64,000 nucleotides of DNA from an uncultured Chloroflexia bacterium (GTDB taxonomy: Bacteria; Chloroflexota; Dehalococcoidia; Dehalococcoidales; RBG-16-60-22). Every line of letters starts with the position of its first letter. Position 1 is the stretch's first letter. The translations under genes and the position numbers were made by a program. Below, in pieces: positions 10,622 through 36,701 of the stretch. The notes below the pieces were generated by a model. The model worked only from the letters and a program-made list of their open reading frames with translations. It searched no databases and was not told the origin of the DNA. The stretch is from NCBI GenBank assembly GCA_963727315.1, contig CAVSFE010000002.1, forward strand, positions 471,723-535,722. Reading direction: 5' to 3'.

Positions 10622-10653
10622 TAATCATCCTCCCCGATAAATGACGCCCCCCT

Positions 10654-10776: not shown

Positions 10777-10805
10777 TTGACATTGCAAGCTAATTATGTT
10801 AAAAA
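10777..10805 (+). promoter_or_regulatory. possible promoter for CetZ-like gene 2
   Basis: TTGACA (10777-10782), 17-nt spacer, TAAAAA (10800-10805). The -10 element is weak. Confidence 0.3.
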
Positions 10806-10846
10806 TAGCTTAAGGTCATCAGGATTTTTTATCATCGAGGTGCAAG

Positions 10847-17161: not shown

Positions 17162-17213
17162 AGGGATATATCTATTATAGGTGATATGCGTCAGAAAAAG
17201 AAAATACCCGGCA

Positions 17214-18347
17214 TTATCTCCCCTTTTCCCCGCCGTCTATTTGAGTCGTTTTCACTTTCAGTCCCCGCGCCGAGAAGAACCCCGCCAGCGTGATGCCCGC
17301 CCCCACGTACATCAGCGTCGCATATCCCCAGGCCTCGGAGACCGCGCCGCCCAGGAAAGGCCCCAGGACGCCGGAGACGGCGTTGGCGGAGTTCATCAGG
17401 CCGGCCGTGGTGCCGTACTCCGGGTGATGTCTCAGGAGATAGCTCAGGGCCCCGACGAACATGCTGGAATAGGCTAAAGCCAGGAACAGCTGCACCGGTA
17501 TGAGCTGCCAGTACCGCGTCAGCAGTCCGTAGACGACGAAGACGGCCGCCGAAAGGAGCAGTCCCGCCTGGAACATCCTGGCCGGGTTGAACTTCTCGAT
17601 GTAGCGCATCGCCACGATTTGCCCGACCATGTTGGTCACCTCGACGAGGGCAATCCAGAGCTTGCTGGCGCCGATGCTGGCCTGGTAGAGCGGCCAGATG
17701 GTCCAGATGGCGTTGCCCCCCAGCTGCCTGAGGAAAAAGCCGAGATATACTTTGTAGTCTGCCTTTATCAGCGCCGCCGGGAACCTGGCTACCTGCATAT
17801 GACTGGTGGCTTTTTCCACGAGTAGTAAAGATATCAGGAAAGCCAGGAAAGCCACGATGGCGCTGATAATGAACAGCGCCGTGTAGTCTTTGACGATGGC
17901 CGCGGTCACCGCGCCGATGAGCCATCCCAGCGCCCCGTAAGAGATGAAGCTGCCTATCTGCCGCTGGTTCTCGTAGGTGTAGGCCATGATGACCGATGAG
18001 TTGATGCCGAGGGCGAAGCCTATCGACGCGCGGGCGGCCAGCAGCGCCATCGGGTTGTGGGCGATGATCTGGGTGAGGTAGGCCAGCGCCGTGAGCCCGA
18101 GCCCGGCGCGGATGTATTTCATCCTGCCGTGAATATCGGACAGCCGACCAAAAAATAGCGATGAGGCGAAAAAAGCGATGCCGCCGGCGGCGGCGATAAA
18201 GCCCACCTGCAAATTCGTGGCACCGATGTCCTTGGCGTAAAGTGCGATGAAAACGTTGGAGGTGTCGACGGCGCAGTTGGAAAGCAGGTTGATGGCTGCC
18301 AGGCATAGTGGTATCGAGACCCAGGCCGGGGGAGAGAAACGCCGCAT
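17214..18347 (-). CDS. MFS transporter
   Basis: 377 aa, multi-TM, with the FGRLSDIHGR loop motif typical of MFS. Confidence 0.8.
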   Translation of the reverse strand: MRRFSPPAWVSIPLCLAAINLLSNCAVDTSNVFIALYAKDIGATNLQVGFIAAAGGIAFFASSLFFGRLSDIHGRMKYIRAGLGLTALAYLTQIIAHNPMALLAARASIGFALGINSSVIMAYTYENQRQIGSFISYGALGWLIGAVTAAIVKDYTALFIISAIVAFLAFLISLLLVEKATSHMQVARFPAALIKADYKVYLGFFLRQLGGNAIWTIWPLYQASIGASKLWIALVEVTNMVGQIVAMRYIEKFNPARMFQAGLLLSAAVFVVYGLLTRYWQLIPVQLFLALAYSSMFVGALSYLLRHHPEYGTTAGLMNSANAVSGVLGPFLGGAVSEAWGYATLMYVGAGITLAGFFSARGLKVKTTQIDGGEKGR

Positions 18348-18455
18348 CTCAGCAGGCCTCTTTCTTCTGCCTAAAAGACAGATATAAATATTATAGCGTT
18401 AAGCTGGTTCAGGGTAAATATCGCGGTGACTTTTGCCTGAATAGAACCGTAACAC

Positions 18456-18518
18456 TTGACAGTTTAAATAATTTAATATATTATACCTAGGTATTATACC
18501 TAGAAAATCTAGGTGTAT
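18456..18518 (+). promoter_or_regulatory. strong sigma70-like promoter with overlapping operator-like repeats
   Basis: TTGACA (18456-18461), 17-nt spacer, TATTAT (18479-18484). Direct repeats TTATACCTAG at 18481-18490 and 18494-18503, with inverted CTAGGTGTAT at 18509-18518. Confidence 0.55.
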
Positions 18519-18536
18519 GGATAAAGGAGGTAAAAA

Positions 18537-18909
18537 ATGCGTTTAGTTGCCCTGTTAGTCGTCATCCTGGGAATCGCCGCTCTCGTCTTCGGCATCATTT
18601 TCTTCCCGCAGGCCAGCTCAGCCAAGCAGAAAGTCGTCGACTCTTTATCGTCGGGCGTCACCCTCGATAATCTCAACGCTAAATACGACCAGGTCAGCGG
18701 GGCCTACGATCAGCTGATGGCAGCCGGAATGCCATCCAATGATCCACAAATGTCATGGTCCTCGGCCAGCGGACATCACTCGGACTGGCTAAATCCAGCG
18801 TCGGCCTGGCCAAGTTCATCAACACCATGGGCATCGTCAATATCATCGTCGGCGTCGGTCTGGTGCTTGGCGGATGCGCGCTGATGATGAGAAAAAACCA
18901 GAACGCCTG
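18537..18909 (+). pseudogene. small two-TM membrane protein, frameshifted as assembled
   Basis: The N-terminal TM is in the 18537 frame. The C-terminal TM (LAKFINTMGIVNIIVGVGLVLGGCALMMRKNQNA*) is in another frame and joins if the A3 run at 18748-18750 is A4. Confidence 0.55.
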
Positions 18910-19111
18910 AAGTTAAAAAAATTTATCCAGAACATGAAGCCTCATAGACGGCGCGAAAGACCCCCGAGCTTTTACCCGTCTATGAGGTGAAAATCGGTTT
19001 TAAGCTCCCTCAACCAAACGATGTGCTTTTGGCTGGCTTTTTTGTTCCCCCGTAGCGATTTCTCTCCGTTACCTGTATAATATTCCATAATCGCTTTGAA
19101 AGGGGTCGACT

Positions 19112-19403
19112 ATGGTCAGAAAAACCGGGAAACCGAAACAGTACGAGGTAATCATCAGGCTGGTCGCCAATCAGCACCCCTGCCACTCCGGCCATAAAAT
19201 CGGCGACGAATGGGTCTTCGACTTTCTGCCGCCGCCGGGCTTGTGCGGGTTCGCTTACAACTCCCTTTTCCCTTTCGCCATGGTGTTGAAGACCGGCGGC
19301 GACTTTCCCCTGGCAGGCAGACCCGGATGTCGTCACGGTGTCCTGCCCCGATGCCGAGGTCAATAACGTCTTCGAGCTGAGACGCCGGGTGATAAAAGCC
19401 TGA
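19112..19403 (+). pseudogene. TIGR04076-like small Cys-containing protein, frameshifted as assembled
   Basis: HPCHSGHKIGDEWVF...GLCGFAY...GGDFP, then WQADPDVVTVSCPDAEVNNVFELRR in the next frame. There is an extra C in the C-run near 19306. Confidence 0.6.
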
Positions 19404-19426
19404 GAGACCGGAGATGAGGTGCTGAA

Positions 19427-20220
19427 ATGTCGGTGAAAAAGTCGTTGACTTATCTGGCGCTGGCGCTGTTTTTAGCGGCGCTCCTGGGCGCTACCGGGTG
19501 CAACACCGTCGTCACCGGTTCGGGCGAAAACGCCACCTGGGACAATGGACTATACCGACTTCAATAGGATTGAGGTCAGCCAGACTTTTGATATCACCAT
19601 CGAACGGTCGGACTCCTATCTGGTGCAAATCACCATCGATAAAAAGCTCTACGAATATCTGAAAATCGACCAGCGCGGCGATACCCTTCGTATCGGTCTC
19701 AAGCCGAATTACAGCTATGTCGGGACGGAGCAGCAGGCCGTCGTTAATCTCCCCGACCTGCGCCGACTGAAGCTGTCCGACGCCTCGAAGGCGGTCGTCA
19801 GCGGTTTCTCGATGTCCCATTCTCTGGACTTCTGAGCTTTCCGATGCCAGCCGGCTGGAGCTTGGGGCATATTATTGCCGGTAATTGCGGTTTTTCGCTT
19901 TCCGATGCCAGTGAGGTCAGCGGCAGCATTGAGATGGACGACGGGTCTTTCAACCTGTCGGATGCCAGCTCTCTGGCGCTCCAGGGCTCGGCGGATGATA
20001 TCGACATCCAGGCATCGTCCTCCAGCGACCTAAAGCTTTCGGACTTTGCCGTCGTCACCGCCGCGGTGGACCTCAGCCAGCTCCAGCCGATGCCGTCATC
20101 AATGTCAGCAGCCGCATGGACGTTAAGTTGAGCGCCTCTTCCGACCTCGAATATATCGGCAGTCCCAAGCTGGGCAAACTCGATATGTCCGGCGGTTCCA
20201 CCCTCAACCAGAAACAGTGA
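19427..20220 (+). pseudogene. DUF2807/GIN-domain-like lipoprotein, multiply frameshifted
   Basis: Lipobox LLGATGC, then reiterated L.LSDAS strands spread over three frames. Breaks lie near 19544, 19832, 19867 and 20075. Confidence 0.6.
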
Positions 20221-20224
20221 AAAG

Positions 20225-20470
20225 CTAGGCCGGCTTCTTCGGTCTTCTTAAGAGCACGGTTATTATCAGCGTGTTCCGCGAGATGGCGATATTGTGGGAG
20301 TTGACCTCCCAGCCTGCTTCGATTGAATCCGGCAGGTGGGAGAAAATATCTTCCAGCGTTTTGGTGAGCCCGTCCTGGTCTTCGATACGGGTAAAATGGG
20401 GGAAACGCCCCGCCTCTTCGGGATTGATGTATTCCACCAGCACTTTATATTCGTAAGGATGATTTTTCAT
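20225..20470 (-). CDS. hypothetical protein
   Basis: 81-aa ORF with a coding-like composition. No family recognised. Confidence 0.4.
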   Translation of the reverse strand: MKNHPYEYKVLVEYINPEEAGRFPHFTRIEDQDGLTKTLEDIFSHLPDSIEAGWEVNSHNIAISRNTLIITVLLRRPKKPA

Positions 20471-20490
20471 GTTAACCCTCCCCGAGCCTG

Positions 20491-21744
<1,254 letters not shown>

Positions 21745-21807
21745 ATCTCTGACCTCGCTGTTGATTAATAACAGTTTAGCACATATTCCCGGTAGTGCAA
21801 GATAGGG

Positions 21808-21843
21808 AGGAAAAGAAAGAGTCCCGATGAAATCGGGACTCTT
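21808..21843 (-). terminator. rho-independent terminator downstream of the URO-D-like gene
   Basis: On the minus strand: AGAGTCCCGAT-TTC-ATCGGGACTCT followed by TTCTTTTCC. Confidence 0.6.
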
Positions 21844-21876
21844 AAACACCCCTAGCAACAAACTAATAGCTAACCG

Positions 21877-23193
21877 CTACTTATATACTCCGTATTCCCT
21901 GGCCGCCTCCATGAAGGCGCGGAAGTTGGCCGGGTTTTTCGTCTCCGTCGCCGTGCAGCCGCCCGCCAGGATATAGCCTCCCCCCGGGGCGCAGGTCTCG
22001 ATGAGCTTGCGGCACTCTTCCTTGACCTGCTTCGGCGTGCCGGTGATGACAATCGAGCCCGGCACATTCCCGGCGATGCAGCACGTATTTCCTACCATCT
22101 TTTTGGCTTTGGCCATGTCGGTCTTGTCGAACATCCAGGTCACCCAGCCCTTGGGGAAATCGCCGATGTATTCCAGCCTCTCGTTATAGGCGCCCTCGGC
22201 GAAGAGCGACACCATGATGCCTTCTTCGATGAGCGCGTCGATGGTCTTTTTCAGGCTGGGCCAGTAGAATTTTTCGAACTGCTTGCGGGACATGAACGTG
22301 TCGTCGCCTTTGTGCAGGGGGAAGCCTATCGTATGTCCCGCCGTCGAAATAAATCTTTTGAGGTTTATCTCGGTAATCACGTCGATGGCTTCGAGGAGCT
22401 TTTCCGGTTGCCGGAACATGTCGATGGCCACCCCGGACGTTCCCCGGAGAAAATCGCCGAGGACGTCGAAGGGCGCGATGCCCATGCCGCCCCGCCCCTC
22501 GGGAAAGCCCATCTCCCGGGCTTCCCGGTTGAAATCGGCGAGTATTTTCCGCTGTCTTTCCATTTCCTCTCCGGCGGCGATCATCCTCTTGAAGGCCTCC
22601 CGCATCTTGCGCCTGGAGAAGGGAGCGGTCATGGACATCGGCGTGCCCATGAGGGTGTTGAGCGGGGGGAAGTCGGCCAGGGCTTCCGCCGCTCCGACGA
22701 TGCGCGGCGTGATGACCCTGAACCCGAAGTCGGAGGGGTCTTTGATGAAGGCGTCGTATTCGTCGGCTTTCATGTACTGCGCTTCGATGAACTGGAAGGT
22801 ATTGACGTTGTCTCCCAGCCCGTGCCCCGGCCAGCTATAGTTTTTATAGTCCATGATGTCCATGACCCTGCCGGAGAAAACGAACCCCGGTCCCATGAAG
22901 CTGTCCATGTCGTCGGCGAAGTCGACCATGAACTGGCGCCAGGCCGCCACGCAGGCTCGATAGTCGTACATCATCGTCTTGAAGTCGGAGCCGACGTAGT
23001 AGGCCGGGTAGTTGCCGGTCGGCAGCGATACGGGCACGCGGTCGGGCTCCTGGCACATGTTGGCTTTAAGCTGGCGGGTAACGCGCTCGTGGTAGAGCTT
23101 TTCCGCTTTGGCGTCGCGGAACTTTATGCCCTTGCCGGAAACGTAGTCCTTGAGCCTTTTCTGGCGTTTTTCTTCGCGGGTCGTTTTCGGCAT
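21877..23193 (-). CDS. uroporphyrinogen decarboxylase (URO-D)-like family protein
   Basis: 438 aa. Overall resemblance to the URO-D/MtaA-like TIM-barrel family. Call is by eye only. Confidence 0.55.
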   Translation of the reverse strand: MPKTTREEKRQKRLKDYVSGKGIKFRDAKAEKLYHERVTRQLKANMCQEPDRVPVSLPTGNYPAYYVGSDFKTMMYDYRACVAAWRQFMVDFADDMDSFMGPGFVFSGRVMDIMDYKNYSWPGHGLGDNVNTFQFIEAQYMKADEYDAFIKDPSDFGFRVITPRIVGAAEALADFPPLNTLMGTPMSMTAPFSRRKMREAFKRMIAAGEEMERQRKILADFNREAREMGFPEGRGGMGIAPFDVLGDFLRGTSGVAIDMFRQPEKLLEAIDVITEINLKRFISTAGHTIGFPLHKGDDTFMSRKQFEKFYWPSLKKTIDALIEEGIMVSLFAEGAYNERLEYIGDFPKGWVTWMFDKTDMAKAKKMVGNTCCIAGNVPGSIVITGTPKQVKEECRKLIETCAPGGGYILAGGCTATETKNPANFRAFMEAAREYGVYK

Positions 23194-23277
23194 ATCGGTG
23201 GTCTCCTTCGATTTTTGATGATTTTTACCAGTATAACATGGCCGGCTTAAGAGATACTAACTGATTTTTTTGTGCTC

Positions 23278-23739
23278 TCAGCGCAATTTCTCTCCGAAAA
23301 CTCGGCCATAGTCCTGACATGCTTTTATGCCTTCCCGGGTTTCAATCTTATCTTCTTGCAGGTTGAGAGGACCAAGCTCGAATGGAACCATCTTATGTTC
23401 CTTTTGCAGGACATTGAAGATAATGGCCGGTCCGTAAGCATCGTGTTGGTATGAGATATCATGCCGGTATGAGCCAAAGGCGCCGCTTATTTTGCCTTCG
23501 AGCTTTGCCTTCTCGGTTAGTGATAGAAAAGCTTTCACCGGTTTTGGCAAGTCGAGCGAGAACGTGGGAGAACCGAAAATATAGCCGTCATACCCGCTTA
23601 AGTCAATCGCGCTCTTTACGTCCTCTATCTTTTTGACGACAGCCTCTCGTCCGCTGAATCGTATGCCCTCAGCGATGTACTGTGCCATGGCTTCCGTCCT
23701 GCCAGTCGAGCTAAAATAGGCAATCAAAACCTTTTTCAT
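23278..23739 (-). CDS. flavodoxin family protein
   Basis: 153 aa with the KKVLIAYFSSTGRTE flavodoxin FMN-binding signature. Confidence 0.8.
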   Translation of the reverse strand: MKKVLIAYFSSTGRTEAMAQYIAEGIRFSGREAVVKKIEDVKSAIDLSGYDGYIFGSPTFSLDLPKPVKAFLSLTEKAKLEGKISGAFGSYRHDISYQHDAYGPAIIFNVLQKEHKMVPFELGPLNLQEDKIETREGIKACQDYGRVFGEKLR

Positions 23740-23754
23740 CGTACATACCTCTAG

Positions 23755-25244
<1,490 letters not shown>

Positions 25245-25342
25245 TTATTGGCACCTGTCCAGATTAAGCGTGTTATGACTAATTATATGTTATCCGTGCT
25301 TTATGGTAAAGGGGGAAATGACAGGTTGAGGTTTAAACAAAC

Positions 25343-26122
25343 CTAAGGATTTAGCTGGAGCCTCTGTTCTCTCAGCTTATCCAGCCAGGCGGCGGACTTT
25401 ACTTCCCTCTCCAGGATGTATTTAAGGTAGCCGCCGATGACGTTCTCTATTTCATGGGCCAGCCCGGCGTCGATGTTTACACACGCTGCGACTGCATAGT
25501 CGTCGCCCTGCAATAGTCTCATGACCTTCTGGGCGTTGAGGGATAGAGGATAGGAGAATGGCTGGCTGGAGTTGCAGGCGGGGCAGAGCAGGCCGCCGGC
25601 GGCCGGGCTGAAATAGTTGGTGGTCGCCTCCAGGACTTTATGGCAGGTAACGCACTCTTTTAGCTGGGGTCGGTAGCCGGCGCATTCGAGGAGGTGCAGC
25701 TCGAAGTAGCGCAGGACCAGCTCTTTATTTTCATCGCGGCAGAGCCGGTCGAGGGTCTCCAGTGTCAGTTGAAAAAGCGTTGGATTTCCCTGGCGTTCGG
25801 CGGCGAACTGGTGGACAAGCTCGGCGCAGTAGAGTCCGCACGAGGTGAGCCAGAGGTCGTCCCTCAGGGGGAGGAAAGCGTTGATGGTCTGGGCGCCAGT
25901 GATGGTGTCGATATTGCCGCGCCCCCGCGAGAAAGAGACCGTGCTGTGGCAGAGGATTTCAAGGTGGCCGGCCATCTTGCTTTTAGGCTTGCGCAGGCTC
26001 TTGGCGAAGCCCTGTATCTTGCCGAGGCGGGGAGTGAAAAAGGTGAGGATGGTGTCCGCCTCGCCCAGCTTCGTCTTTTTAATGACGATGGCTTCCGTCT
26101 GGTATTCGCGCGGGTCGGACAT
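25343..26122 (-). CDS. recO: DNA repair protein RecO
   Basis: 259 aa. OB-fold N-terminus and a CxxC...CxxC zinc motif (CVTCH...CPAC). Confidence 0.85.
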   Translation of the reverse strand: MSDPREYQTEAIVIKKTKLGEADTILTFFTPRLGKIQGFAKSLRKPKSKMAGHLEILCHSTVSFSRGRGNIDTITGAQTINAFLPLRDDLWLTSCGLYCAELVHQFAAERQGNPTLFQLTLETLDRLCRDENKELVLRYFELHLLECAGYRPQLKECVTCHKVLEATTNYFSPAAGGLLCPACNSSQPFSYPLSLNAQKVMRLLQGDDYAVAACVNIDAGLAHEIENVIGGYLKYILEREVKSAAWLDKLREQRLQLNP

Positions 26123-26124
26123 AT

Positions 26125-26700
26125 CTATTTTCCGTTCGCAGCCCTGGCGGTAATCAAATAATGATATTTTCCGCTGTCTTCTATCGAGACGATGGTGAAG
26201 CCGGCTGCCTGAATCAGGCGCGCTGCCGTTGCTTCGTCGAACCTGATATGTGCCGGCGGGCCGATGGATGCCTCTTTCTTCCAGTCCAGGTCGACCAGCC
26301 TGCCGGTCGTTTTGATGATTATTTTAGCATTTTCCAGGACTTTGGCAGGGTCCTGAAAATCGTGGAGCGCTATCCCGTAGAAGACGATATCGGCGCAATG
26401 CTTGCAGATGACGGTATCTTCCGCCCTGGCAACTTTAAGGACAAGGTTATTCAGGCCTTCTCGGGCCGCCTGCTCTCTCAGGCTGGCGATGGCGGCAGCG
26501 CTGGTGTCCACCCCGTAGACTTTCCCCTCTTTCCCCGCCATTCTGGCGGCCGGCAGGGTGAAAAACCCGCCACCGCAGCCGATATCGGCGAAAACGGTCC
26601 CCGGCTTTACCCCTATTTTCGAGAGTATCGCTTCCGGGTCCTGCCACCTTCTTCTTTCGGGGTCGTCAAACGGCCGGAAACCGCCGTGGTAATGGCTCAT
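26125..26700 (-). CDS. class I SAM-dependent methyltransferase
   Basis: 191 aa with motif I VFADIGCGGGFFT. Confidence 0.8.
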   Translation of the reverse strand: MSHYHGGFRPFDDPERRRWQDPEAILSKIGVKPGTVFADIGCGGGFFTLPAARMAGKEGKVYGVDTSAAAIASLREQAAREGLNNLVLKVARAEDTVICKHCADIVFYGIALHDFQDPAKVLENAKIIIKTTGRLVDLDWKKEASIGPPAHIRFDEATAARLIQAAGFTIVSIEDSGKYHYLITARAANGK

Positions 26701-26708
26701 CTTTAGCT

Positions 26709-26866
26709 ACCTCACCCCCTATATCCCTTTCAGGGTGAATCCCTTCAGGGTGAACCCCTCTCCGTTGACGGAGAGGGGGAGGATTTATGGAAGAGGGGCT
26801 GACGCCCTTCAGGGTGAACCTTCACTTCGTGGTGACCTCAGTGGAACCAGGATGAACCCCTCTTAG
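26709..26866. repeat. composite REP/MITE-like element cluster
   Basis: ACCTCACCCCCT leader, CCCTTCAGGGTGAA modules, CCCCTCTCCGTTGACGGAGAGGGG hairpin, and a 74-bp unit (26791-26864) with AAGAGGGG/CCCCTCTT termini. Confidence 0.85.
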
Positions 26867-26878
26867 ACGCCCTGCTTT

Positions 26879-27544
26879 TTACAGCTCCATTTGTTTCAAG
26901 CCTTTAAAGATTTTTAGTTTCGCCTCCGTCAGCGACTGCACCTCGGCGGCGGTCCAGCCGGGGGCGGTCTCCTTTAAAAGCAGGCCTTCAGGCGTGACGG
27001 CGATGACGGCGATATCCGTGACAATCAGGTTCACACAGCGGGGGGCGGTCAAAGGATAGGTGCACTCTTTGAGCAACTTGGGTTTATTGTCCTTAGTGGT
27101 ATGGGTCATCACGGCGATCAGGTGGTGGGCGCCGAAAGCCAGGTCCATCGCCCCGCCGATATTGCCGGGTCGACCGAGCTGCACCGTCCAGTTGGCGATA
27201 TCGCCCTTCTCCGAGACCTGCATTGCCCCTAATACACACAGCCCGATGTGGCGGCCCCGAATCATGCTAAAGCTCTGGTCGTGGTCGAAGAAGCACATAC
27301 CCGGCTGGCGCGTGGCGAACTGGCCGGTGGCGTTGACCAGATGAAAATCCTCATCTTCAGCCCGGGTGGGCGAGGGGCCAAAGCCGAGGCAGCCGTTCTC
27401 GGCGTGGAAAATAACCTCAATACCCTCGGGGATAAAGTTGGCGGCCAGCGTGGGAATACCGAAACCCAGGTTGATGACCATGCCGTCGCGGAACTCTTTA
27501 GCCACCCTGAGGGCCATCGTCGACTCATCAAGTCGTTGTTTCAT
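26879..27544 (-). CDS. 3-oxoacid CoA-transferase subunit B
   Basis: 221 aa with the FHAENG catalytic-Glu motif of family I CoA-transferase beta subunits. Confidence 0.85.
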   Translation of the reverse strand: MKQRLDESTMALRVAKEFRDGMVINLGFGIPTLAANFIPEGIEVIFHAENGCLGFGPSPTRAEDEDFHLVNATGQFATRQPGMCFFDHDQSFSMIRGRHIGLCVLGAMQVSEKGDIANWTVQLGRPGNIGGAMDLAFGAHHLIAVMTHTTKDNKPKLLKECTYPLTAPRCVNLIVTDIAVIAVTPEGLLLKETAPGWTAAEVQSLTEAKLKIFKGLKQMEL

Positions 27545-27545
27545 T

Positions 27546-28271
27546 TTATGCCCCCTTTCTCACCGCAACACGGTCGACAAATATGCCCGGCGTAACGATA
27601 ACCTCGGGGTCGAGGGCGCCGAGCTCGACCAGTTCATCCACCTCGACGATAGTCACCTTAGCCGCGCCCGCCATGACGGAGTTAAAGTTGCGGGAAGTGC
27701 CCTGGTAAACGCAGTTGCCGTAGCGGTCGGCGCGGTAAGCCCGCACCAGGGCGAAATCGGCCTTAATGGGGTGTTCGAGGATATGCTCACGTCCATCGAT
27801 GACCCTTTTTTCCTTGCCCTGCTCCATGACCGTACCGGCGCCGGTGGGGATAAAGAAAGCGCCGACGCCCGCCCTGGCCGCCCTGATTCTCTCGGCGAGC
27901 GTGCCCTGCGGCACCATCTCCACCTCCAGCGTCCCGGCCTCCCACCTTTGAAAAAGCGGGGCGGGCATGCCGGGTCGGGTCAAACCGGGGAAAGCGCAGA
28001 TGACCTTTTTCACCTGGCCGGACTGTATCAAGATACCGCCGTCGTCGTAATCGGGCGGGGTCTTGCGGAAGGGCTTAGAGCCCTCCGGAGCACGGCCCAT
28101 GCCGGGCGTGTTGGCGGCCAGCGTCAGATTTTTAGCGCCCTGCTTCACTAAAGCCCGCAGGAGGTTGGAGGGGGTGCCGTTGGCGGGGCCGAAGCCGCCC
28201 ATTAAGATGACAGCGCCATCGAAGATATCCTTGACAGCCTCGTCAAAGCTGGCGACCACTTTATTGATCAT
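27546..28271 (-). CDS. 3-oxoacid CoA-transferase subunit A
   Basis: 241 aa. N-terminal KVV.SFDEAV..I.DGA.I..GGFG pattern. Adjacent to subunit B. Confidence 0.85.
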   Translation of the reverse strand: MINKVVASFDEAVKDIFDGAVILMGGFGPANGTPSNLLRALVKQGAKNLTLAANTPGMGRAPEGSKPFRKTPPDYDDGGILIQSGQVKKVICAFPGLTRPGMPAPLFQRWEAGTLEVEMVPQGTLAERIRAARAGVGAFFIPTGAGTVMEQGKEKRVIDGREHILEHPIKADFALVRAYRADRYGNCVYQGTSRNFNSVMAGAAKVTIVEVDELVELGALDPEVIVTPGIFVDRVAVRKGA

Positions 28272-28290
28272 AGAGGCCTCCTATTGTTAT

Positions 28291-28364
28291 GTCATTCTCA
28301 GGCTTGACCCGAGAATCCAGCCTCCCCTTTTTCCCTTCTGGATTCCCGCTTTCGCGGGAATGAC
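28291..28364. repeat. second copy of the GTCATTC...GGGAATGAC double-hairpin element
   Basis: Shares TGGATTCCCGCTTTCGCGGGAATGAC with 7693-7718. Confidence 0.8.
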
Positions 28365-28371
28365 AGAATTA

Positions 28372-29550
28372 TTAGTCTCTCTGTCCCAGTATCGTCACGG
28401 AGCCGATGCCGCTGCCGGGGTTCATGCCGAAGTTGTGAGTGAGGCCAAGTCTGGGGTTCTTACGCTGGCGGGGACCGGCCTTGCCCTGCATCTGCTTATA
28501 GATTTCATAAATCATCCTCAGGCCGCTGGCGCCGATGGGATGCCCGAAGCTCTTGAGTCCGCCATCGGGATTGACCGCCAGCTGGCCGTCGAGTTTGAAC
28601 GTGCCAGCCCTAACATACTCCGGGGCTTTACCGCGCGGGCAGAAGCCCAGGTCTTCCATGATGACCAGCTCGGTGATGCTGAAGCAGTCGTGCACCTCGG
28701 CCAGGTCTATTTCTTTAAACGGGTCTTTAATCCCCGCCATGGCGTAAGCCTGCTTCGCGGCGCGTACCGTTTCCTCCATGTGCACCATGTCGTACGACGG
28801 CTGCAAATAGCCCTGCCGCGCGCCGACGGCAAGTCCAAGTCCCTTAACGAGAATATAATCGTCGCGGAAATTTTTCGCCATATCCGCCCGGCAGACAATA
28901 GCCGCCGCCGAGCCGTCGCTGACGCCGCAGGCGTCATAGAGTCCCAGCGGCCAGGAGACCATCGGGGCATTAATCGCCATTTCCTCGGTGATTTCCCTCT
29001 GGAAATGCGCGCGGGGGTTCAACGAGCCGTTATGGTGGTTCTTGACGGATATTTTCGCCAGGGTCTGCTTCAGCTCTTCGTAGGTCAGACCATAATGCGC
29101 CATGTAGCGCGTCGCCATGCGGGCGAAGAACATCGCGGCCGACATGCCCCACTCCATCGTGCCGTCGCCGCCGGCGCCGCTGACCGTGCCCAGGCCGCCC
29201 ATACCCTGGTCCTTGAGCTTCTCCACCCCGATAGCCATCACGACATCATAGACACCGGAGGCGATGCCGAAGCAGGCGTTGCGCAGGGCCTCGGTGGCGG
29301 TAGCGCAGAGGTTTTCCACGCGGGTCACGGGGATATACTCGGTCTTGAGGGCCGCGGCGCAGGGCTCGGCGGTATTGATGCGCGTCGAGCCAAACCACAC
29401 CGCCTGAATATCCTTCATCTCAATACCGGAGTCCTCACAGGCCTCGGAGGCGGAATCCACGAGCATATCGTCGGCGCTCTTTTCCCAGTTTTCACCGAAC
29501 TTGGTGCAACCCATGCCGACGATAGCGACCTTATTTTTAATGCTCTCCAT
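28372..29550 (-). CDS. thiolase-domain protein (archaeal/SCP-x-type acetyl-CoA acetyltransferase-like)
   Basis: 392 aa. VAIVGMGCTKFG start, Cys in ENLCATATEAL, and a C-terminal GHPIGASG / NPGSG region. Confidence 0.8.
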   Translation of the reverse strand: MESIKNKVAIVGMGCTKFGENWEKSADDMLVDSASEACEDSGIEMKDIQAVWFGSTRINTAEPCAAALKTEYIPVTRVENLCATATEALRNACFGIASGVYDVVMAIGVEKLKDQGMGGLGTVSGAGGDGTMEWGMSAAMFFARMATRYMAHYGLTYEELKQTLAKISVKNHHNGSLNPRAHFQREITEEMAINAPMVSWPLGLYDACGVSDGSAAAIVCRADMAKNFRDDYILVKGLGLAVGARQGYLQPSYDMVHMEETVRAAKQAYAMAGIKDPFKEIDLAEVHDCFSITELVIMEDLGFCPRGKAPEYVRAGTFKLDGQLAVNPDGGLKSFGHPIGASGLRMIYEIYKQMQGKAGPRQRKNPRLGLTHNFGMNPGSGIGSVTILGQRD

Positions 29551-30939
29551 CTATTTCTCCTCCTTTCCCAGCCAGTTTGAACGGGGAGGCATACAGCGCC
29601 AGAAATAGTTGTGAATGCCACCGCCCACGCCCAGCGTACGGAAGCTCATCACGACATCCATGCCCACTTTCACCTTATCGGCAATCATATCCGTCATGCC
29701 GAAAAGCGCCCGCCCGCCCCCGTCGAAGTCCACCATCGTGTCCACGCCGGGTCGGGCGAAAGCCGGGATATCGGCGCCGTGCTTTAAAGTAAAGGTAAAG
29801 ACCCTGCCCTTTTTATCGGCGAAGGAGTAAGGCTCGAAGTTATCTTTAGTATGGCAATTGGTGCAGATGCGCTGCGGGGGATACTGGACGGTGCCGCAGG
29901 TAAGGCACTTAACGCCGCGCAGGGCATAGATGGCGTCCCGCTCCCGGGCGATGACGGAAGCCGAAGCCCCGGCGAACCGCTCGGGGTCGGACGCAGCGAA
30001 CTCCCTAAACGCGGCGTATTCGCCCTGACCCCGCATCGGCATTTTAGAAGTCAGACTCCGCTTCATGCCCCATTTACCGGCGATATTCTTTATCTTATCC
30101 GTTACCTTTAAAAGCAGGACATCGGCGCCATCGCCGTAGCTGGCCACCAGGATTTTATCGCTGGGTTTAGCGTCTTCCAGGGCCGCCACGAGCATCATCG
30201 GCACAAACGCCGTGCCGGTATTGCCGAGCTTATCAAAGAACGGCTCCTGCACCTGCTCCGGCTTAAACCCCAGAGCGCCGACCAGCTGACGATGGCGACG
30301 CAAGTCGGGACCGTACAAAACGGTTTTAGTTATGTTCGGCACGGCAAGACCGGACTTTTCGAAAAAGTGCTTAATCGCCTGCGGCAATATTTTCAGATAG
30401 CCTTCTTCAAAGACAAAGCGGTCTTCCCAGGAGCGGACGTTTTTGGCGCCGCTGGCGCGCCAGACATCAAGCAACTCGTTAGAAAGCGAGTAGCCGCCCT
30501 CTATCGTAGCGATGACGTCTTTATCGCCGATGACAAACGCCGCCGCGCCGTCGGCGAAGTCGCCGCCCATGCGCAAATCTGAAGCGGTGACCAGGACGTT
30601 TTTCGCCGACCCCGCCCCGACGGCGTCCGCCGCCATCTTCAAAGCCCCCGTCCCTGCCCGCAAAGAGTCGGCGACGTCCGCCGTCAAAATATCGCGGGGG
30701 AGGTCGAGAGCCCAGGCGGCGGTGGTCGCTGCCAGCTTTTCGGCATAGGGCGGGGTGGTGGACGCAAAATAAAGCCCATCGATTGTTTTCCTGTCAAGGC
30801 TCCCCAGGCAATCTATAGCCGCCGCCACAGCCATCGTCAGGCTGTCCTCGTCCCAGTTCGCCACCGCTTTTTCCGTCTGGGGGCCGGTGCTCAGGCGGCG
30901 AAGGGGAACATAAGCGCCGCAGGATGTAATGCCAATCAT
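29551..30939 (-). CDS. HMG-CoA-synthase-like condensing-enzyme domain fused to a DUF35 Zn-ribbon/OB-fold domain
   Basis: ATG 30939 with an AAGGAG RBS (the TTG at 30969 is less likely). N-terminal MIGITSCGAYVP... resembles HMGCS/KASIII. The C-terminus CLTCGTVQYPPQRICTNCH...VFTFT resembles DUF35. Confidence 0.65.
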   Translation of the reverse strand: MIGITSCGAYVPLRRLSTGPQTEKAVANWDEDSLTMAVAAAIDCLGSLDRKTIDGLYFASTTPPYAEKLAATTAAWALDLPRDILTADVADSLRAGTGALKMAADAVGAGSAKNVLVTASDLRMGGDFADGAAAFVIGDKDVIATIEGGYSLSNELLDVWRASGAKNVRSWEDRFVFEEGYLKILPQAIKHFFEKSGLAVPNITKTVLYGPDLRRHRQLVGALGFKPEQVQEPFFDKLGNTGTAFVPMMLVAALEDAKPSDKILVASYGDGADVLLLKVTDKIKNIAGKWGMKRSLTSKMPMRGQGEYAAFREFAASDPERFAGASASVIARERDAIYALRGVKCLTCGTVQYPPQRICTNCHTKDNFEPYSFADKKGRVFTFTLKHGADIPAFARPGVDTMVDFDGGGRALFGMTDMIADKVKVGMDVVMSFRTLGVGGGIHNYFWRCMPPRSNWLGKEEK

Positions 30940-31065
30940 GGGCTCCTTTCTGATGGAGTAATCAACCAAGGGATTTTTTGTTCCGACCTAGTTTAAGTCT
31001 CGGTGCTTTGCGTTGTCAAAAAGTGCTATAATCTTTTAGCTATTTTCGGATATAAGGAGGCCACG

Positions 31066-32039
31066 ATGAATATCATGGTCATGGGAGGGAGCGGGCTTTT
31101 CGGCAGGAAGACGGTGGCGGCCCTGCTCAAGGATAAAGAGGTCAAGACCGTGGTCTCCCTGGATATGGTCCCACCGCCGGCGTGGTTCATGAAGACCACG
31201 GAAAAATATGCCGCCAAATTTCATTACGTCCGCGGGAACGTGACGGAAATCGAGGATATTTTAAATCCGATGAAAGAATACGCCGTCGACCGGCTGATCA
31301 ACTGGGCGTTTATCATGGTCACGGAGCTCCAGGGCGAGCCGCGACTCGTTACCAAGGTCAACGTCATCGGCATGAGCAACGCCTTCGAGGCGGCCAAAAT
31401 GATGAACGTGAAACGCGTCGTGTACGCGAGCTCGGAGACGGTCTACGGCCCCCAGGCGATGTACGGCATGAGGGAAGTAAACGAGGACGACCAGACCAAT
31501 CCCACCCATTCCTACGCCGTCTGCAAGCTTTACGCCGAGATCATGGCCGGGCAGTACCAGAGGCTCTACGGCATGAGCTTCTCCGGGCTGCGGCCGACGA
31601 TCGGCTACGGACACGGCGGGAGGTCGCCAGCGCAATACTGGTCAGACATACCGTCGGCGGCGGCGATAGGCAAGCCATTCTCCATGGAAGGCGACGGCAA
31701 CGGCCTCGCCTCGCTGGTGGCCGCGGACGACGTGGCGGAATTCACCAGGCTCCTGATTAAAGCCCCCGCTTCGCCCCACCCCGTCTATAACGTTGGCGGC
31801 CCCCTAAAAGCCCGCGGGACCTGGCGGCGGTGGTTAAAAAATATATTCCGGACGCCAAGATTACCTTCGGGAAAAAGCCGATGATGGACAAAAAAGGCAA
31901 GACCGGCCTGCCCTGGCTGGTCAGCAGCGAAAGAGCGAAAAAAGACTTCGGCTTTACGTGCCTGCCGATAGAAAAAGCGGTATTAATACATATCAACGAC
32001 GCGCGGCTGGAGGCGGGACTAAAGCCGATAAAGGGATAA
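31066..32039 (+). pseudogene. NAD-dependent epimerase/dehydratase family protein, frameshifted as assembled (paralog of 39737-40711)
   Basis: MVMGGSGLFGRK Rossmann start with an AAGGAGG RBS. Frames join if the C5 run at 31800-31804 is C6. The C-terminus HINDARLEAGLKPI is shared with the paralog. Confidence 0.8.
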
Positions 32040-32114
32040 TACAAAATAACTATTACTCGTTTGACGGGCCGTGCTATAATAATACACCTGCAAAAGCTAT
32101 AAAGAAGGAGAAAA

Positions 32115-32525
32115 ATGAAAGTCACGGACGTGGTGAAAAAATTCCTCGAAGCTGAAGACAAGATGTGGAACACCGGCGACGGCGGCGCCCTGCTGGCCAT
32201 CGAAGACCCCAATATCGTCGTCCACATGTTCAACGTGCCGGACATGAAGGGGAACCAGGCGCACGTGGCCATGGTCAAGAGAATACGGGACGGGATTCCC
32301 GGCGGCGTCACCCATGTATGGGCGGACATTACCGGCTCGGGGGACATCGGGGCTTTCCGGTATACCGAGAGCTTCAAACGCGGCGATAAAGATATGTCAT
32401 ACCAGGGCTGCATGTTCCTCCATGTCAAGAACGGCAAGGTCGTGGAGATATTCGCGCAATACGACACGCTGACCCTGATGCTAGCCTCCGGCGTGGTGCA
32501 GTACGTTCCGAAACCGTCGGTTTAA
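32115..32525 (+). CDS. hypothetical protein, possibly SnoaL/NTF2-like
   Basis: 136 aa. Size and alternating pattern suggest an NTF2-like fold. Weak by-eye call. Confidence 0.4.
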   Translation: MKVTDVVKKFLEAEDKMWNTGDGGALLAIEDPNIVVHMFNVPDMKGNQAHVAMVKRIRDGIPGGVTHVWADITGSGDIGAFRYTESFKRGDKDMSYQGCMFLHVKNGKVVEIFAQYDTLTLMLASGVVQYVPKPSV

Positions 32526-32554
32526 GGCTTTTCAACAATTCAAGGCATTAAAAC

Positions 32555-32592
32555 AAGAGGAGGCAGGGCAAAAACCCCGCCTCCTCTTCTTT
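32555..32592. terminator. hairpin between convergent genes (likely bidirectional terminator)
   Basis: AAGAGGAGGCAGGG-CAAAAA-CCCCGCCTCCTCTT followed by CTTTG. Confidence 0.55.
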
Positions 32593-32627
32593 GCTATTCA
32601 GGGTGTTACTATTTAACGTTTAATTCG

Positions 32628-33423
32628 TTACTTCGTAACGTTCTCTTTTTTATGCGAACCTGAATACTCGCCCTGCGGTCCGGCGGAAAAAACGACGGTG
32701 GGATATTTAATATCATGGAACTCCCACGGGCAGTGCTTTAAACCGGCCGGGATACAGACATAAGAGCTCTTGGTGGTGGTGTGGTATTCACCGTCGAGGT
32801 AAATGGCCATCTCACCCTCGTATTTCACGCGGTTTATCCGGGTTAGCGCCGACCATCGCCAGAAGTTCCGGCCATTCATGATCATGTTCCGGCGCCGGAG
32901 CGTTGCCCGTGCCGCTGTAGATTCTAACGACATCCACATAGAAGGAGCCGGGAATCATATCATCTTCGATATGCAGGATGCGGGCGCCTTTGGTGGTGAT
33001 GGGGCCCGGTGGACGCGGCGCTTCTTTAAAGTCGCCGCCTACGGAGAACCTCTCCTTGGTATGGTCCATCAACGAATACCGCTTTTTTGCCGAGGGTTTG
33101 GCGGGTTGGGAAGCGGGTTTGCGTGAATATTGCCCGGTCATGGCAATAACCAGGAAAAGTACCGGTTTGTTAATCTTGTTAAACATAATCGGGCCATGGA
33201 TGACGCCCGCGGGGATGAAGATGAGGTGATTCCTGGTGAAAACTTCTTGATGGCCATCCAGCCACATAGTAATCTCACCGTCAAGGTCCTGGTCAGCCCC
33301 CGGATACCCGCCGATAAAGCCGATAACCTGGGAATAATCATGGGTATGCGGTTCGCTGACGGGTTCTTTCGCCGCGCCGCTCCATAGCCAGGTAGTATCG
33401 ACATAGAAATAGCCTTTCATCAA
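32628..33423 (-). pseudogene. bicupin-like protein of unknown function, frameshifted as assembled
   Basis: Two halves each carry EPHTHD/EHDHEWPE and IPAG..H.P motifs. Frames join near 32823-32825 (A-run). Confidence 0.6.
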
Positions 33424-33545
33424 AGTTTATCGGTCGCCGTGATAAGGTGAGTGGCTTTCACGCCCGGCACCGGGTCTTTGGCCGTGCCGACCTTTCCTTT
33501 CAGCTCATCGGGGTAAGCACCCGGCTTATTGACGAGACATTTTCC

Positions 33546-34575
33546 CTATTTTTTTGCAGCCATTTTCTCCTGCCTTTCTATTTTTTCACTCTTCGCCAGT
33601 TTCTTTTTCTTGGCGATGCACTCTTTGACCGAAACGGCGATATCCTCCGCGCCCAGGCCGAAGTGTATCTTAAGCTCGTCGATCGGGCGAGACTTTGCCG
33701 GACTGGCTGAACTCATCCTCAACGCCGACTTTTACCATGGGCGTGGGCAGGTTTTCCGAAAGTATCGCCGCCACGCCGTCTCCCAGCCCGCCGATAACGC
33801 TGCCGTTTTCCGCGGTGACGATGGCGCCGGTCTTTTCCGCCGCTTTGATAATCGCCTCATCGTCCAGCGGCTTGAGGGTGCACATATCCAGCAGGCCGAC
33901 ATCAAGACCGTCTTTCTCCAGTATATCCAGCGCCCTTATCGCTTCCGTCAGCATATAGCCGGTGGCGATAATGGTGGCGTCCTTGCCGTCCCTCAACGAA
34001 AAGGCTTTGCCGATATCGAAGGGCAAATCCTCGGCGAAAATCCTCATCGAGGGCGGGCTGGACTCCTGCCTTAAAAGCACCGGCCCGACGTACTGGAGCA
34101 TAGCCTCGGCGGCTTTTTCCGCCTCGACGGCGTCCGAAGGGTTCAGGATAACGAGGTTGGGCAGGACGCGCGTGCTGCCGATGCCCTCGACCGTGTTATG
34201 GGAGATGCCCGTCTCGCCCCAGGCGCCCTCGCGCCCGATGAACTTCACGTTAAAGCGGTCGACGAGGATGCTCTGCCGTATCTGGTTGTACGCCCGGCCG
34301 ATATCGGCGAAAAGGAAGCTATTGATAATGGGGATAAAGCCTTCCGCGGCCAGGCCCGCCGCCATCACCGCCCCGTTTTGCTCGGCGATGCCGCACTCCA
34401 TCATGCGGTCGGGGCAGTTTTTCTTGAACCACAGCATCCCCGGGAAACCCATGTCCTCCAGCACAGCGATGATGCGGTCGTTCTTGGTCGCCGCCGCGAT
34501 AATCGCTTTCTCCATCCCCGCCCCCGCCATGCTGGGCTTGTTTTCTATCTGAACGTATTTGTTAAACGTCGCCAT
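33546..34575 (-). pseudogene. transketolase C-terminal (pyrimidine-binding) subunit, frameshifted near its 3' end as assembled
   Basis: CGIAEQNGAVMAAGLA motif. An extra C near 33686 truncates the ORF. The corrected frame continues PIDELKIHFGLGAEDIAVSVKECIAKKKK... to the stop at 33546. Confidence 0.75.
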
Positions 34576-35464
34576 ATTTTTCCCTCCCTTCCTTGATGCC
34601 CCTCATAATGACGTCGCCGCGCCCGAGGTGGATATGCTCGCGCTCCCAGGCCGGGATGCCGTGCCCCTTGACCGTATGGGCGATAATGCACTTGGGACGG
34701 TAGTCGCCGTAGAGCTTGTCGGTCAGGTCCAGGGCTTCGACAATCTGGCGCAGGTCGTGCCCGTCGATTTCCGTGACCCACCAGCCGAACGCCTTCCACT
34801 TGTCCACCAAGGGCTCGAGGTTCATGACCTCGTTGGTGGGGCCGTCCAGCGAGAACTTATTATAGTCGACGATGGCGATGAGGTTATCGAGCTTGTACTT
34901 GGCGGCGAACATGGCGGCCTCCCAGACCATGCCCTCCTGGCATTCGCCGTCGCCGAGGATGCAGTAGGAGCGGTAGAGCGGGTCGAGGCGCACGATATAC
35001 CGCTGCAGGAACCCGCCCTGCCCGAAGTTGATATCCTTAATCGCCGACTTCAGTTTTTCGGCGTAAGCCATGCCCACGGCGAAGGACAGGCCCTGCCCCA
35101 GCGAGCCGCCGGAGTAATCGATGCCCGGCGTGCACCACCGGTCGGCGTGGCCCTGGAACGGCGAGCGGTAGCAGTAATAAGTCTTCAGCGTCTCTTTAGG
35201 ATACACCCCCAGCTCCACCAGCGCGGCGTAAATAGCTTCGCAGCAGTGGGCTTTGGAGAGGACGACCCTGTCCCTCTCCGGCCAGTCGCAGTTCTTGGGG
35301 TCGAACTTGATGTGATGGAAATAGAGGGCGGTGATAAGCTCGATGATGGACATCGTGCCGCCGCCGTGCCCCATCTGCGTCGACTCGAAGATATCGAAGC
35401 AGTTCCGGCGTAAAATGTCGGCCTTTTTCTCAAGGTCCTTGATTAATTTATCATCATGCGCCAT
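34562..35464 (-). CDS. transketolase N-terminal (TPP-binding) subunit
   Basis: 300 aa with GHGGGTMSIIELITALYF and the GDGECQEG TPP motif. Confidence 0.88.
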   Translation of the reverse strand: MAHDDKLIKDLEKKADILRRNCFDIFESTQMGHGGGTMSIIELITALYFHHIKFDPKNCDWPERDRVVLSKAHCCEAIYAALVELGVYPKETLKTYYCYRSPFQGHADRWCTPGIDYSGGSLGQGLSFAVGMAYAEKLKSAIKDINFGQGGFLQRYIVRLDPLYRSYCILGDGECQEGMVWEAAMFAAKYKLDNLIAIVDYNKFSLDGPTNEVMNLEPLVDKWKAFGWWVTEIDGHDLRQIVEALDLTDKLYGDYRPKCIIAHTVKGHGIPAWEREHIHLGRGDVIMRGIKEGREKYGDV

Positions 35465-35657
35465 ATTTTTTCCGCCCTTCTGTTTTAATATTGACCGTTT
35501 TCAGCGTAAGTTTGGCGCCGCAGCGCGGGCAGGCGTCGTGATAATAGCCCAGCACCGTCTTCTCCGACGGTATCGCCCGCATGTAGAGCCGGCGCTTGAT
35601 TTCCTCGCCGAAGTACAGCAGCATGCCGCACTGGCCGCAATTGATTTTTTCCGTCAT
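35454..35657 (-). CDS. small zinc-ribbon protein
   Basis: CGQCG...CPRCG pair. ATG 35657 with a GAGG RBS (TTG 35678 is an alternative). The 3' end overlaps the transketolase start by 11 nt. Confidence 0.5.
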   Translation of the reverse strand: MTEKINCGQCGMLLYFGEEIKRRLYMRAIPSEKTVLGYYHDACPRCGAKLTLKTVNIKTEGRKKYGA

Positions 35658-35683
35658 GTTTACCTCGCTTTCTTTCAAATAAT

Positions 35684-36701
35684 CTACGGCTTGATCAATA
35701 TTTTTATCGATTTGCCGGCTTTATGCAGTTCGAAAGCTTTTTTGATGTCCTTGAGAGGGACGATATCCGTGATGAGAGACTTAAGTTCAAGTTTGGGGAG
35801 CATGGCCAGCGCCCGCGGGAAAGAATAAGGGGAAACGAAGGTAGAGGTAATGGTGAGCTCTTTGGCGTACATCAGGAACGGAGGCACGCCGATTTCCACG
35901 TCCTTGCCGTAGACGGCCGCCCAGAGGATGGTGCCCTTATTATCCGCCAGGAAGATACACTGCTTGGCGGCTTTCACGTTGCCGCTGGCGTCGATAACGA
36001 CATCAAAGCCGCGGCCGTCCGTGAGCTTTTTGCCGACTTCAATGATGTCCTCTTTAAAGGGGTCGACGACGACGTCCGCGCCCAGCTTTTTGGCCAGCGC
36101 GCGTTTTTCGGCGATGGGCTCGGAGAGGAGCGTGCGCGCGGCACCGGCTTGAATCGCCATCTCCAGGCAGAGCAGGCCGATAGGCCCGCCGCCGCAGACG
36201 GCGACGCTGCTGCCGGTGCGCACCCTGGCCTGGTCGATAGCGTGGACGGCGACGGACACCGGCTCCAACAGCGAGCCGACCTCCAGGCGAGATATCGTCC
36301 TGAAGCGGATAGATGGCGCTTTCCGGGTAGACGGCATATTCCGCGAAAGAACCCGAAGCGCCCTCGGCAGAACGGCAGAAGTGCTCCATACCGTTACGGC
36401 AGTAGTAGCAGGCACCGCAGGCGCTGCGAAAGTTCATCGCCACCCGCTGCCCCACCTTATAATTGCCCTTGACGTTTTTGCCGATTTCGGCGATGGTGCC
36501 CGAGGCCTCGTGGCCAAGGATACGGGGCTGTTTATAAGCTTCCGGGGGCACCAGACCGAACCTGCCCTCCAGGTTCTCGGGGTCGGTGCCGCAGAGTCCG
36601 CAATAGGCTATCTTCACTTTAACCTGGTCGGGGCCGGTGACGGGGTCGGGGTAATCCTCCATGGCAATGTTGCCGATGCCGCGCATCACGGCTGCTTTCA
36701 T
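35684..36701 (-). pseudogene. zinc-dependent alcohol/threonine-type dehydrogenase (MDR family), frameshifted as assembled
   Basis: CGLCGTD, GHEASG and CGACYYC are in the N-terminal frame. VCGGGPIGLL is in the C-terminal frame. There is an extra C near 36286. Confidence 0.8.

Follow-up and report, generated by a model that had tools for sequence, protein, structure and literature searches.

The closest described relative of the system reported here is a bacterial complex published in January 2026 (Nat Commun 2026;17:2196, PMC12960953) in a study that mined 1,030 bacterial loci for hydroxymethylglutaryl-CoA synthase (HMGS; HMGCS in archaea), an ACAT-type thiolase and DUF35, 1,001 of them without secondary-metabolism neighbours. 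Its representative from Pseudomonas fluorescens, PfACAT/HMGS-DUF35, has a fused HMGS-DUF35 protein without the catalytic tetrad of HMGS and an ACAT that keeps Cys, HDxF and GHx; it cleaves acetoacetyl-CoA, an activity nearly abolished by mutation of the HDxF His, and makes neither HMG-CoA nor acetoacetyl-CoA from acetyl-CoA (PMC12960953). The authors saw the bacterial type as an evolutionary intermediate, assigned it no physiological role and did not mention CoA-transferases (PMC12960953). Here we describe a locus of this type from an uncultured Dehalococcoidia bacterium, at positions 26,879 to 30,939 of a 64,000-nt stretch of contig CAVSFE010000002.1 (the window, to which all coordinates refer), where the fusion gene and its thiolase gene are followed by a 3-oxoacid CoA-transferase pair in an operon that probably breaks down keto-acids.

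Several other described systems are related in part. An archaeal HMGCS carrying the quadruple tetrad mutation E82C/C114G/H238Q/N270D makes no HMG-CoA (PMC12960953). PhlACB of Pseudomonas protegens (PDB 5M3K/5MG5/9SKH) and MucABC of Streptococcus macacae (PDB 9VBO/9VBT) are further-diverged relatives that act as C-acetyltransferases and whose thiolase subunit lacks the HDxF His (PMC12960953). Structures of the archaeal, PhlACB and MucABC complexes show DUF35 as the bridge between the HMGS-like and the thiolase (ACAT) subunits. Activation of a 3-oxoacid by CoA transfer, followed by thiolysis, is carried out by SCOT with ACAT, PcaIJ with PcaF and AtoDA with AtoB, and a DUF35 module accompanies an SCP-x-type thiolase-fold enzyme in the BbsAB thiolase and in the ChsH2(DUF35)-Ltp2 steroid aldolase.

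The operon lies on the minus strand and consists of four co-oriented, intact open reading frames (ORFs), as tightly packed as the first-pass annotation of this DNA had read them:

29551-30939, minus strand: fusion gene, HMGS-like domain plus DUF35, 462 aa (longer TTG frame, 29551-30969)
28372-29550, minus strand: thiolase of SCP-x/archaeal type with intact active site (PRK06157; motifs aligned to 6esq_A)
27546-28271, minus strand: 3-oxoacid CoA-transferase subunit A (TIGR02429, 250.6 bits against a cut-off of 128.5; PF01144, 2e-52)
26879-27544, minus strand: 3-oxoacid CoA-transferase subunit B with catalytic E49 in AENG (TIGR02428, 262.1 bits against a cut-off of 243.55)
30943-30949, minus strand: Shine-Dalgarno sequence AAAGGAG, 5 nt before the ATG at 30939 (read from the sequence)

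The ATG of the thiolase gene follows immediately on the stop codon of the fusion gene, the adjacency at 29550/29551 seen at first pass, and the two genes are translationally coupled; the genes of the two CoA-transferase subunits are 1 nt apart. The ATG at 30939 is the true start of the fusion gene, because of the Shine-Dalgarno sequence in front of it and because the alignments with homologues all begin at residue 11 of the longer TTG frame (P0001; numbering in the 462-aa protein equals P0001 minus 10). Contigs of four wetland metagenomes, which represent independent DNA, span almost the entire stretch. One of them, 1399 nt long, spans 29461-30844 and so covers both the HMGS-like and the DUF35 half of the fusion; in it, the larger insertion cluster totals 15 nt and is in frame, and one +1/-1 pair cancels.

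The fusion protein is divided as follows:

30070-30939, minus strand: HMGS-like domain, predicted to be catalytically dead, residues 1-290 of the 462 aa (11-300 of P0001; phmmer 6esq_I, Foldseek 6et9_I)
29932-30069, minus strand: helical linker between the HMGS-like domain and DUF35 (AlphaFold2 helices 301-307, 315-326 and 337-348; pLDDT dips to 70-79)
29845-29931, minus strand: rubredoxin-like zinc ribbon of DUF35, CxxC...CxxC with C355, C358, C369 and C372 (PF12172, 1.7e-8; the genome search gives the same place)
29554-29817, minus strand: OB-fold domain of DUF35 (PF01796, 25.6 bits, slightly under the cut-off of 27.1; phmmer matches to DUF35 chains)

Both halves of the fusion proposed at first pass are confirmed. 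Pfam finds ACP_syn_III_C, zf-ChsH2 and OB_ChsH2_C, of which the latter two are the halves of DUF35, and the OB-fold matches the DUF35 chain 6esq_E at 3.6e-10 and also the ChsH2 DUF35 6ok1_B in phmmer. The HMGS-like domain matches the archaeal HMGCS chain 6esq_I with an E-value of 5.6e-30. An AlphaFold2 model built on 49 homologues reached a pLDDT of 92.8 and a pTM of 0.93; its top match in Foldseek is archaeal HMGCS 6et9_I (TM 0.86, rmsd 1.8 A), and PhlA and MucA come next. The best NCBIfam models are likewise those of archaeal HMG-CoA synthase, both under their cut-offs (NF003274, 174.1 against 244; TIGR00748, 131.7 against 353.35).

Alignment of 6esq_I with the fusion protein pairs GSESHPY with ASTTPPY, FACKAGT with DSLRAGT, VFHQPN with VLYGPD and LGNT with LGNT. 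Three of the four tetrad residues are thus lost, among them the nucleophile Cys: E82 is replaced by T71, C114 by L103 and H238 by Y219 (P0001 numbering), and only the Asn is kept (N270, here N250). The archaeal residue numbers are counts along the 6esq_I chain and agree with those of the quadruple mutant of PMC12960953. Judged by these residues, the HMGS-like domain is predicted to be catalytically dead. The first-pass annotation had suspected from the letters that the segment ADSLRAGTGAL takes the place of the active-site Cys and that the N-terminal domain is altered or a scaffold; the alignment it proposed places a Leu at the Cys and finds the Cys/His/Glu triad broken, which supports this suspicion.

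The catalytic equipment of the partner proteins is intact. Pfam places Thiolase_N/C_1 in the thiolase, which passes the acetyl-CoA acetyltransferase equivalog PRK06157 (543.6 bits, cut-off 403) and matches the archaeal thiolase 6esq_A at 8.9e-64 with aligned motifs, namely C82, HDCF at 287-290 and GHP at 335-337. CoA_trans is found in both transferase subunits; subunit A passes the pcaI/scoA subfamily model and subunit B the pcaJ/scoB subfamily model, with the scores listed above. E49 of subunit B aligns with the SENG motif of 9csc_B, a solved 3-oxoacid CoA-transferase (1.5e-57), and solved ScoB, CtfB-like and AtoA chains match this subunit with similar scores. The archaeal/SCP-x type of the thiolase and the family I CoA-transferase A/B pair had both been correctly named at first pass. 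Two other identities for the thiolase were considered and rejected: a BbsAB benzoylsuccinyl-CoA thiolase, whose equivalogs are missed (NF053627, 19.8 against 250; NF053628, 175.2 against 750), and an Ltp2-type aldolase, since Ltp2 lacks the catalytic Cys which the window thiolase keeps. Neither BbsAB nor ChsH2-Ltp2 has an HMGS-like domain.

At the level of sequence the locus shares every defining feature of the P. fluorescens type: an HMGS-like domain N-terminal to DUF35 in one polypeptide, loss of HMGS catalytic residues, an adjacent ACAT-type thiolase with Cys, HDxF and GHx, and the absence of polyketide synthase (PKS) and nonribosomal peptide synthetase (NRPS) genes, none of which turned up in a scan of the flanking genes from about 20.5 to 44.6 kb of the window. 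It differs in that the tetrad Asn is kept, in that the host is a Dehalococcoidia bacterium, and in the co-directional 3-oxoacid CoA-transferase pair after the thiolase. The arrangement itself is no novelty: a fused tetrad-less HMGS-DUF35 with an intact ACAT has been known since the 2026 work on P. fluorescens (PMC12960953). The archaeal thiolase/HMGCS/DUF35 complex provides the top sequence match for all three modules (9e-64, 6e-30 and 4e-10) and the top structural match for the HMGS-like domain, and it has the same thiolase motifs, but its DUF35 is free and its HMGS site is not dead. Compared with ScoAB, PcaIJ and AtoDA, both transferase subunits lie above the family cut-offs and carry the catalytic Glu, whereas the window thiolase is of SCP-x/archaeal type with a scaffold partner and not a homotetrameric thiolase II or PcaF.

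The fusion belongs to a large family. At least 4979 relatives occur among clusters of 90% identity and 472 clusters at 50% identity (E <= 1e-30); the best 120 relatives are 61-100% identical, share the Pfam architecture and are almost all full length, and the closest metagenomic homologues are 62-88% identical. A scan of one genome per species found a relative in at least 434 genomes, mostly of Dehalococcoidia, and also of Bathyarchaeia, Syntrophaceae, Binatia, Nitrospirales, Desulfobacterales, Nitrospinae and Myxococcales. In a sample of the class, 61 of 151 Dehalococcoidia genomes (53 of 111 genera) carry the fusion, with 0 to 9 copies per genome (G145 has nine, G067 eight and G110 seven). 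None of the seven sampled genomes of the window's own order has it, so that the window genome is unusual within its order.

Residues were tallied in 131 full-length representatives of the 50%-identity clusters. The Glu position is occupied by Thr in 111 of the 131 and by Glu in none (the tallied residues cover all representatives), the Cys position is Leu in 97 of the 131 with no Cys among the eight commonest residues (127 of 131), and each of the four Cys of the zinc ribbon is present in 128-130 representatives. Among 75 fusion ORFs read from 79 fetched loci none has Glu or Cys at the respective catalytic position, and 57 of the 61 thiolase-like ORFs which cluster with the partner thiolase in these loci keep C / HDCF / GH. 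Wherever a locus extends far enough, the thiolase nearly always lies directly downstream of the fusion; in two Bathyarchaeia loci it lies upstream. In these Bathyarchaeia metagenome-assembled genomes (L037:5806-8413 and L075:5793-8407) the fusion is tetrad-less with T/L/S/N at the four positions, and L037 additionally holds a separate pair of thiolase and small DUF35.

Between the window and its relative L004 the dN/dS ratio is about 0.07 in both the dead domain and DUF35 and about 0.04 in the thiolase, rough values because dS is near saturation; they indicate that the fusion is under purifying selection. The wide spread, the conservation of the T and L replacements themselves, the dN/dS of about 0.07 and the many paralogues in some genomes argue that the inactive domain is a stable, maintained scaffold or subunit and not a decaying relic.

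Outside the operon, the genome of the window's organism (1.95 Mb, 92.6% complete) holds one more fusion-thiolase pair, two pairs of thiolase and DUF35, and two more CoA-transferase pairs. The second fusion-thiolase pair (G000:C2:1114251-1116906; L002:8174-10916) is 42-55% identical to the first; each of its genes appears to be broken by a frameshift, which in the fusion gene falls close to the zinc ribbon (ORFs 8174-9442 and 9396-9707) and in the thiolase gene close to the 3' end (ORFs 9725-10792 and 10623-10916). They are either pseudogenes or the result of assembly indels.

HMG-CoA reductase (PF00368) has no match in this genome at its 92.6% completeness (mevalonate kinase was not searched for), and IspH of the methylerythritol phosphate (MEP) pathway is present; because of both, the operon is not a mevalonate module. 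The likeness to the archaeal mevalonate complex drawn at first pass therefore stands for the architecture and falls for the pathway, given the lack of a reductase, the presence of IspH and the dead HMGS site. The search for the reductase had been proposed there as a way to recognize an ordinary arrangement with a full mevalonate pathway, and its outcome gives no sign of one.

The operon is likely to be a self-contained two-step module that converts free 3-oxoacids to acyl-CoA products; the adjacency of the CoA-transferase pair to the thiolase suggests such an activate-then-cleave unit. In the first step the family I CoA-transferase (subunits A and B, with Glu49 on B) would move CoA from succinyl-CoA or acetyl-CoA to a 3-oxoacid, for which acetoacetate is the simplest, default candidate. 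In the second step the thiolase would cleave the 3-oxoacyl-CoA with CoA, using Cys82 as nucleophile together with His287 of HDCF and His336 of GHP, so that acetoacetyl-CoA would yield two acetyl-CoA. The thiolase would be held in a complex by the fusion product, which combines the dead HMGS fold and the DUF35 zinc-ribbon/OB clamp in one chain, and the dead domain is probably a scaffold and part of a shared CoA-binding chamber rather than a catalyst. We infer the complex, the thiolytic direction and the identities of the 3-oxoacid and of the CoA donor. By analogy with the solved complexes, the idea of the first-pass annotation that the fusion hard-wires thiolase, HMGS-like domain and DUF35 together still appears sound.

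Several points weigh against such a degradative module. Complex formation and activity of the window proteins are extrapolated from the Pseudomonas representative, the reactions of thiolase and CoA-transferase are both reversible, and the dN/dS estimates are approximate. Between the thiolase and the transferase genes lie 100 nt that include a promoter-like site, and a joint transcript is presumed. A source of acetoacetate was looked for in the genome and not found: there is no BKACE, and none of the 31 short-chain dehydrogenases/reductases (SDRs) scores above the cut-off for 3-hydroxybutyrate dehydrogenase. The link to the CoA-transferase is rare and not a feature of the family. A transferase pair downstream of the thiolase occurs only in the window and in L003 and L004, the two closest genomic orthologues, which have the same four genes in the same order (72% and 79% identity, respectively); in three more distant loci (L015, L017 and L025) the transferase lies upstream, and among the roughly 150 fusion copies of the 61 Dehalococcoidia genomes just three others have a transferase B gene within 4-8 kb.

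It is possible, though considerably less likely, that the same module acts on a larger or more specialised 3-oxoacid. This could be 3-oxoadipate, the substrate known from PcaIJ/PcaF, or a compound made by the enzymes of the upstream block (dehydrogenase, split transketolase, bicupin and epimerase), and the thiolase would be one of several substrate-specialised paralogues. The subfamily models matched by the transferase (pcaI/scoA and pcaJ/scoB) are joint ones that do not tell substrates apart, and both the additional fusion-thiolase, thiolase-DUF35 and transferase pairs of the genome and the up to nine fusion copies in other Dehalococcoidia would fit specialised copies. Neighbours at other loci vary (acyl-CoA dehydrogenase, enoyl-CoA hydratase, SDR, ADP-forming acyl-CoA synthetase-like and housekeeping genes), and the first three of these count in favour of such a substrate. 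The upstream block (31003-36415) consists of a medium-chain dehydrogenase/reductase, a transketolase split into N and C parts, a bicupin and a divergent epimerase, looks catabolic, and is kept in the same order beside the four-gene operon in L003:1-5700 (50-89% identity). It may feed the operon, or the order may be no more than a sign of kinship; since L003 is closely related, the shared order is weak evidence of a functional link. Against a larger substrate stand the cleavage of acetoacetyl-CoA by the sole assayed member (PMC12960953) and the equivalog passed by the thiolase, which is named for acetyl-CoA acetyltransferase.

A biosynthetic direction, in which the thiolase would condense acetyl-CoA or elongate an acyl-CoA and the transferase would release acetoacetate or recycle CoA, is improbable. 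Such a combination has a precedent in the thl/ctfAB genes of solvent-producing clostridia. The reversibility of both reactions would allow it, and ketothiolase/DUF35 pairs occur in archaeal fatty-acid synthesis (bioRxiv 10.1101/2024.07.05.601840), but the Pseudomonas complex, when assayed, did not form acetoacetyl-CoA from acetyl-CoA (PMC12960953), without an active HMGS no exergonic step would pull the unfavourable condensation, and no acetoacetate decarboxylase was found in the genome.

Highly improbable is a Friedel-Crafts C-acyltransferase of the PhlACB/MucABC type, which would acetylate a phenolic compound or a tetramic acid. In its favour, PhlA and MucA rank directly behind archaeal HMGCS in both the sequence and the structure comparison and are likewise tetrad-less, DUF35-bridged partners of a thiolase-fold enzyme. 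Against it, PhlC and MucB have lost the HDxF His and do not cleave acetoacetyl-CoA, whereas the window thiolase keeps HDCF and matches PhlC with an E-value of just 1e-23 (archaeal thiolase, 9e-64). The three separate subunits of PhlACB and MucABC are encoded in polyketide/NRPS clusters, whereas the window DUF35 is fused and the scanned flanking genes include no PKS/NRPS genes. A hard-wired channel from the thiolase to a functional HMG-CoA synthase for the first mevalonate steps, which the archaeal HMGCS of the channelling complex as best structural and sequence match and the JGI names of homologues (hydroxymethylglutaryl-CoA synthase) might suggest, is effectively refuted by the replacement of Glu, Cys and His, the inactivity of the archaeal quadruple mutant (PMC12960953), the missed HMGCS equivalog cut-offs, and the absence of a HMG-CoA reductase beside IspH in the 92.6% complete genome.

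The remaining features of the operon region concern its control signals:

30990-31019, minus strand: promoter-like site TTGACA-18-TAAACT upstream of the fusion gene (consensus scan 10/12; a pattern match only, not evidence of function)
28272-28371, minus strand: 100-nt spacer between the thiolase and CoA-transferase A genes, holding the palindromic element 28336-28368, a promoter-like site at 28267-28295 and an AGGAGG ribosome-binding site

Rfam gave no match in 26500-31300, and no terminator was assigned after the last gene, where the stretch folds no better than shuffles (z = 0.29).

The palindromic element in the spacer is 33 nt long (CTGGATTCCCGC-TTTC-GCGGGAATGAC) and has five copies in the genome, the others being at about 7695 of the window and at G000:C2:230226, 361793 and 1368081; one copy lies between another thiolase and its DUF35 gene. 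It was also found in L003, L013, L020 and L045. In the four wetland metagenomes the word depth in its bin is 17,000-27,000 against tens in the flanks, with heterogeneous loose ends, features that suggest a dispersed hairpin repeat of very high abundance, common to many organisms. A MITE-like (miniature inverted-repeat transposable element) unit, noticed at first pass, lies in 26783-26857, where bin depth is raised; in a wetland contig of run X2 the 73 nt between 26783 and 26857 are replaced by 18 other letters (side 24, weak), and this junction may mark the site of a relative without the unit.

The neighbours of the operon in the window are genes for a methyltransferase, RecO, lysS, an epimerase, a cupin, a transketolase and dehydrogenases. 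The lysS gene is split into ORFs of 289 aa and 153 aa (23901-25244), and the ORF with a class II tRNA-synthetase core is just 227 aa long (20498-21181); these housekeeping genes look broken or truncated, in keeping with lesions noticed elsewhere at first pass, while the four operon genes are intact.

The system is ordinary in kind, having been first described in 2026, and the adjacent CoA-transferase pair is a modest local twist. For the family as a whole, we rate as evenly balanced the proposal that the pair of dead HMGS-DUF35 and thiolase is a standard, paralogue-expanded beta-ketothiolase unit of many anaerobes, in which the dead domain would be an obligatory CoA-chamber and scaffold subunit and each copy would serve another 3-oxoacyl-CoA; here the unit would be wired to a CoA-transferase so that free 3-oxoacids, possibly from the adjacent block of thiamine pyrophosphate (TPP) enzyme, cupin and dehydrogenase, enter central metabolism. 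Up to nine fusion copies occur in a Dehalococcoidia genome of about 1.6 Mb, and the fusion is found also in Bathyarchaeia. Under this proposal the unit would not be a leftover "not yet recruited", as PMC12960953 suggests; the conservation, paralogue expansion and operon context of the window's family point to a working module of primary metabolism, as opposed to the intermediate of that paper.

Thousands of such proteins carry the JGI name hydroxymethylglutaryl-CoA synthase, which would wrongly credit MEP-route bacteria with a mevalonate pathway. The 3-oxoacid CoA-transferase genes of this operon lend physiological context to a type of complex of which the sole assayed member has no assigned role, and with regard to evolution the data argue that the inactive domain is a maintained subunit and not a relic.

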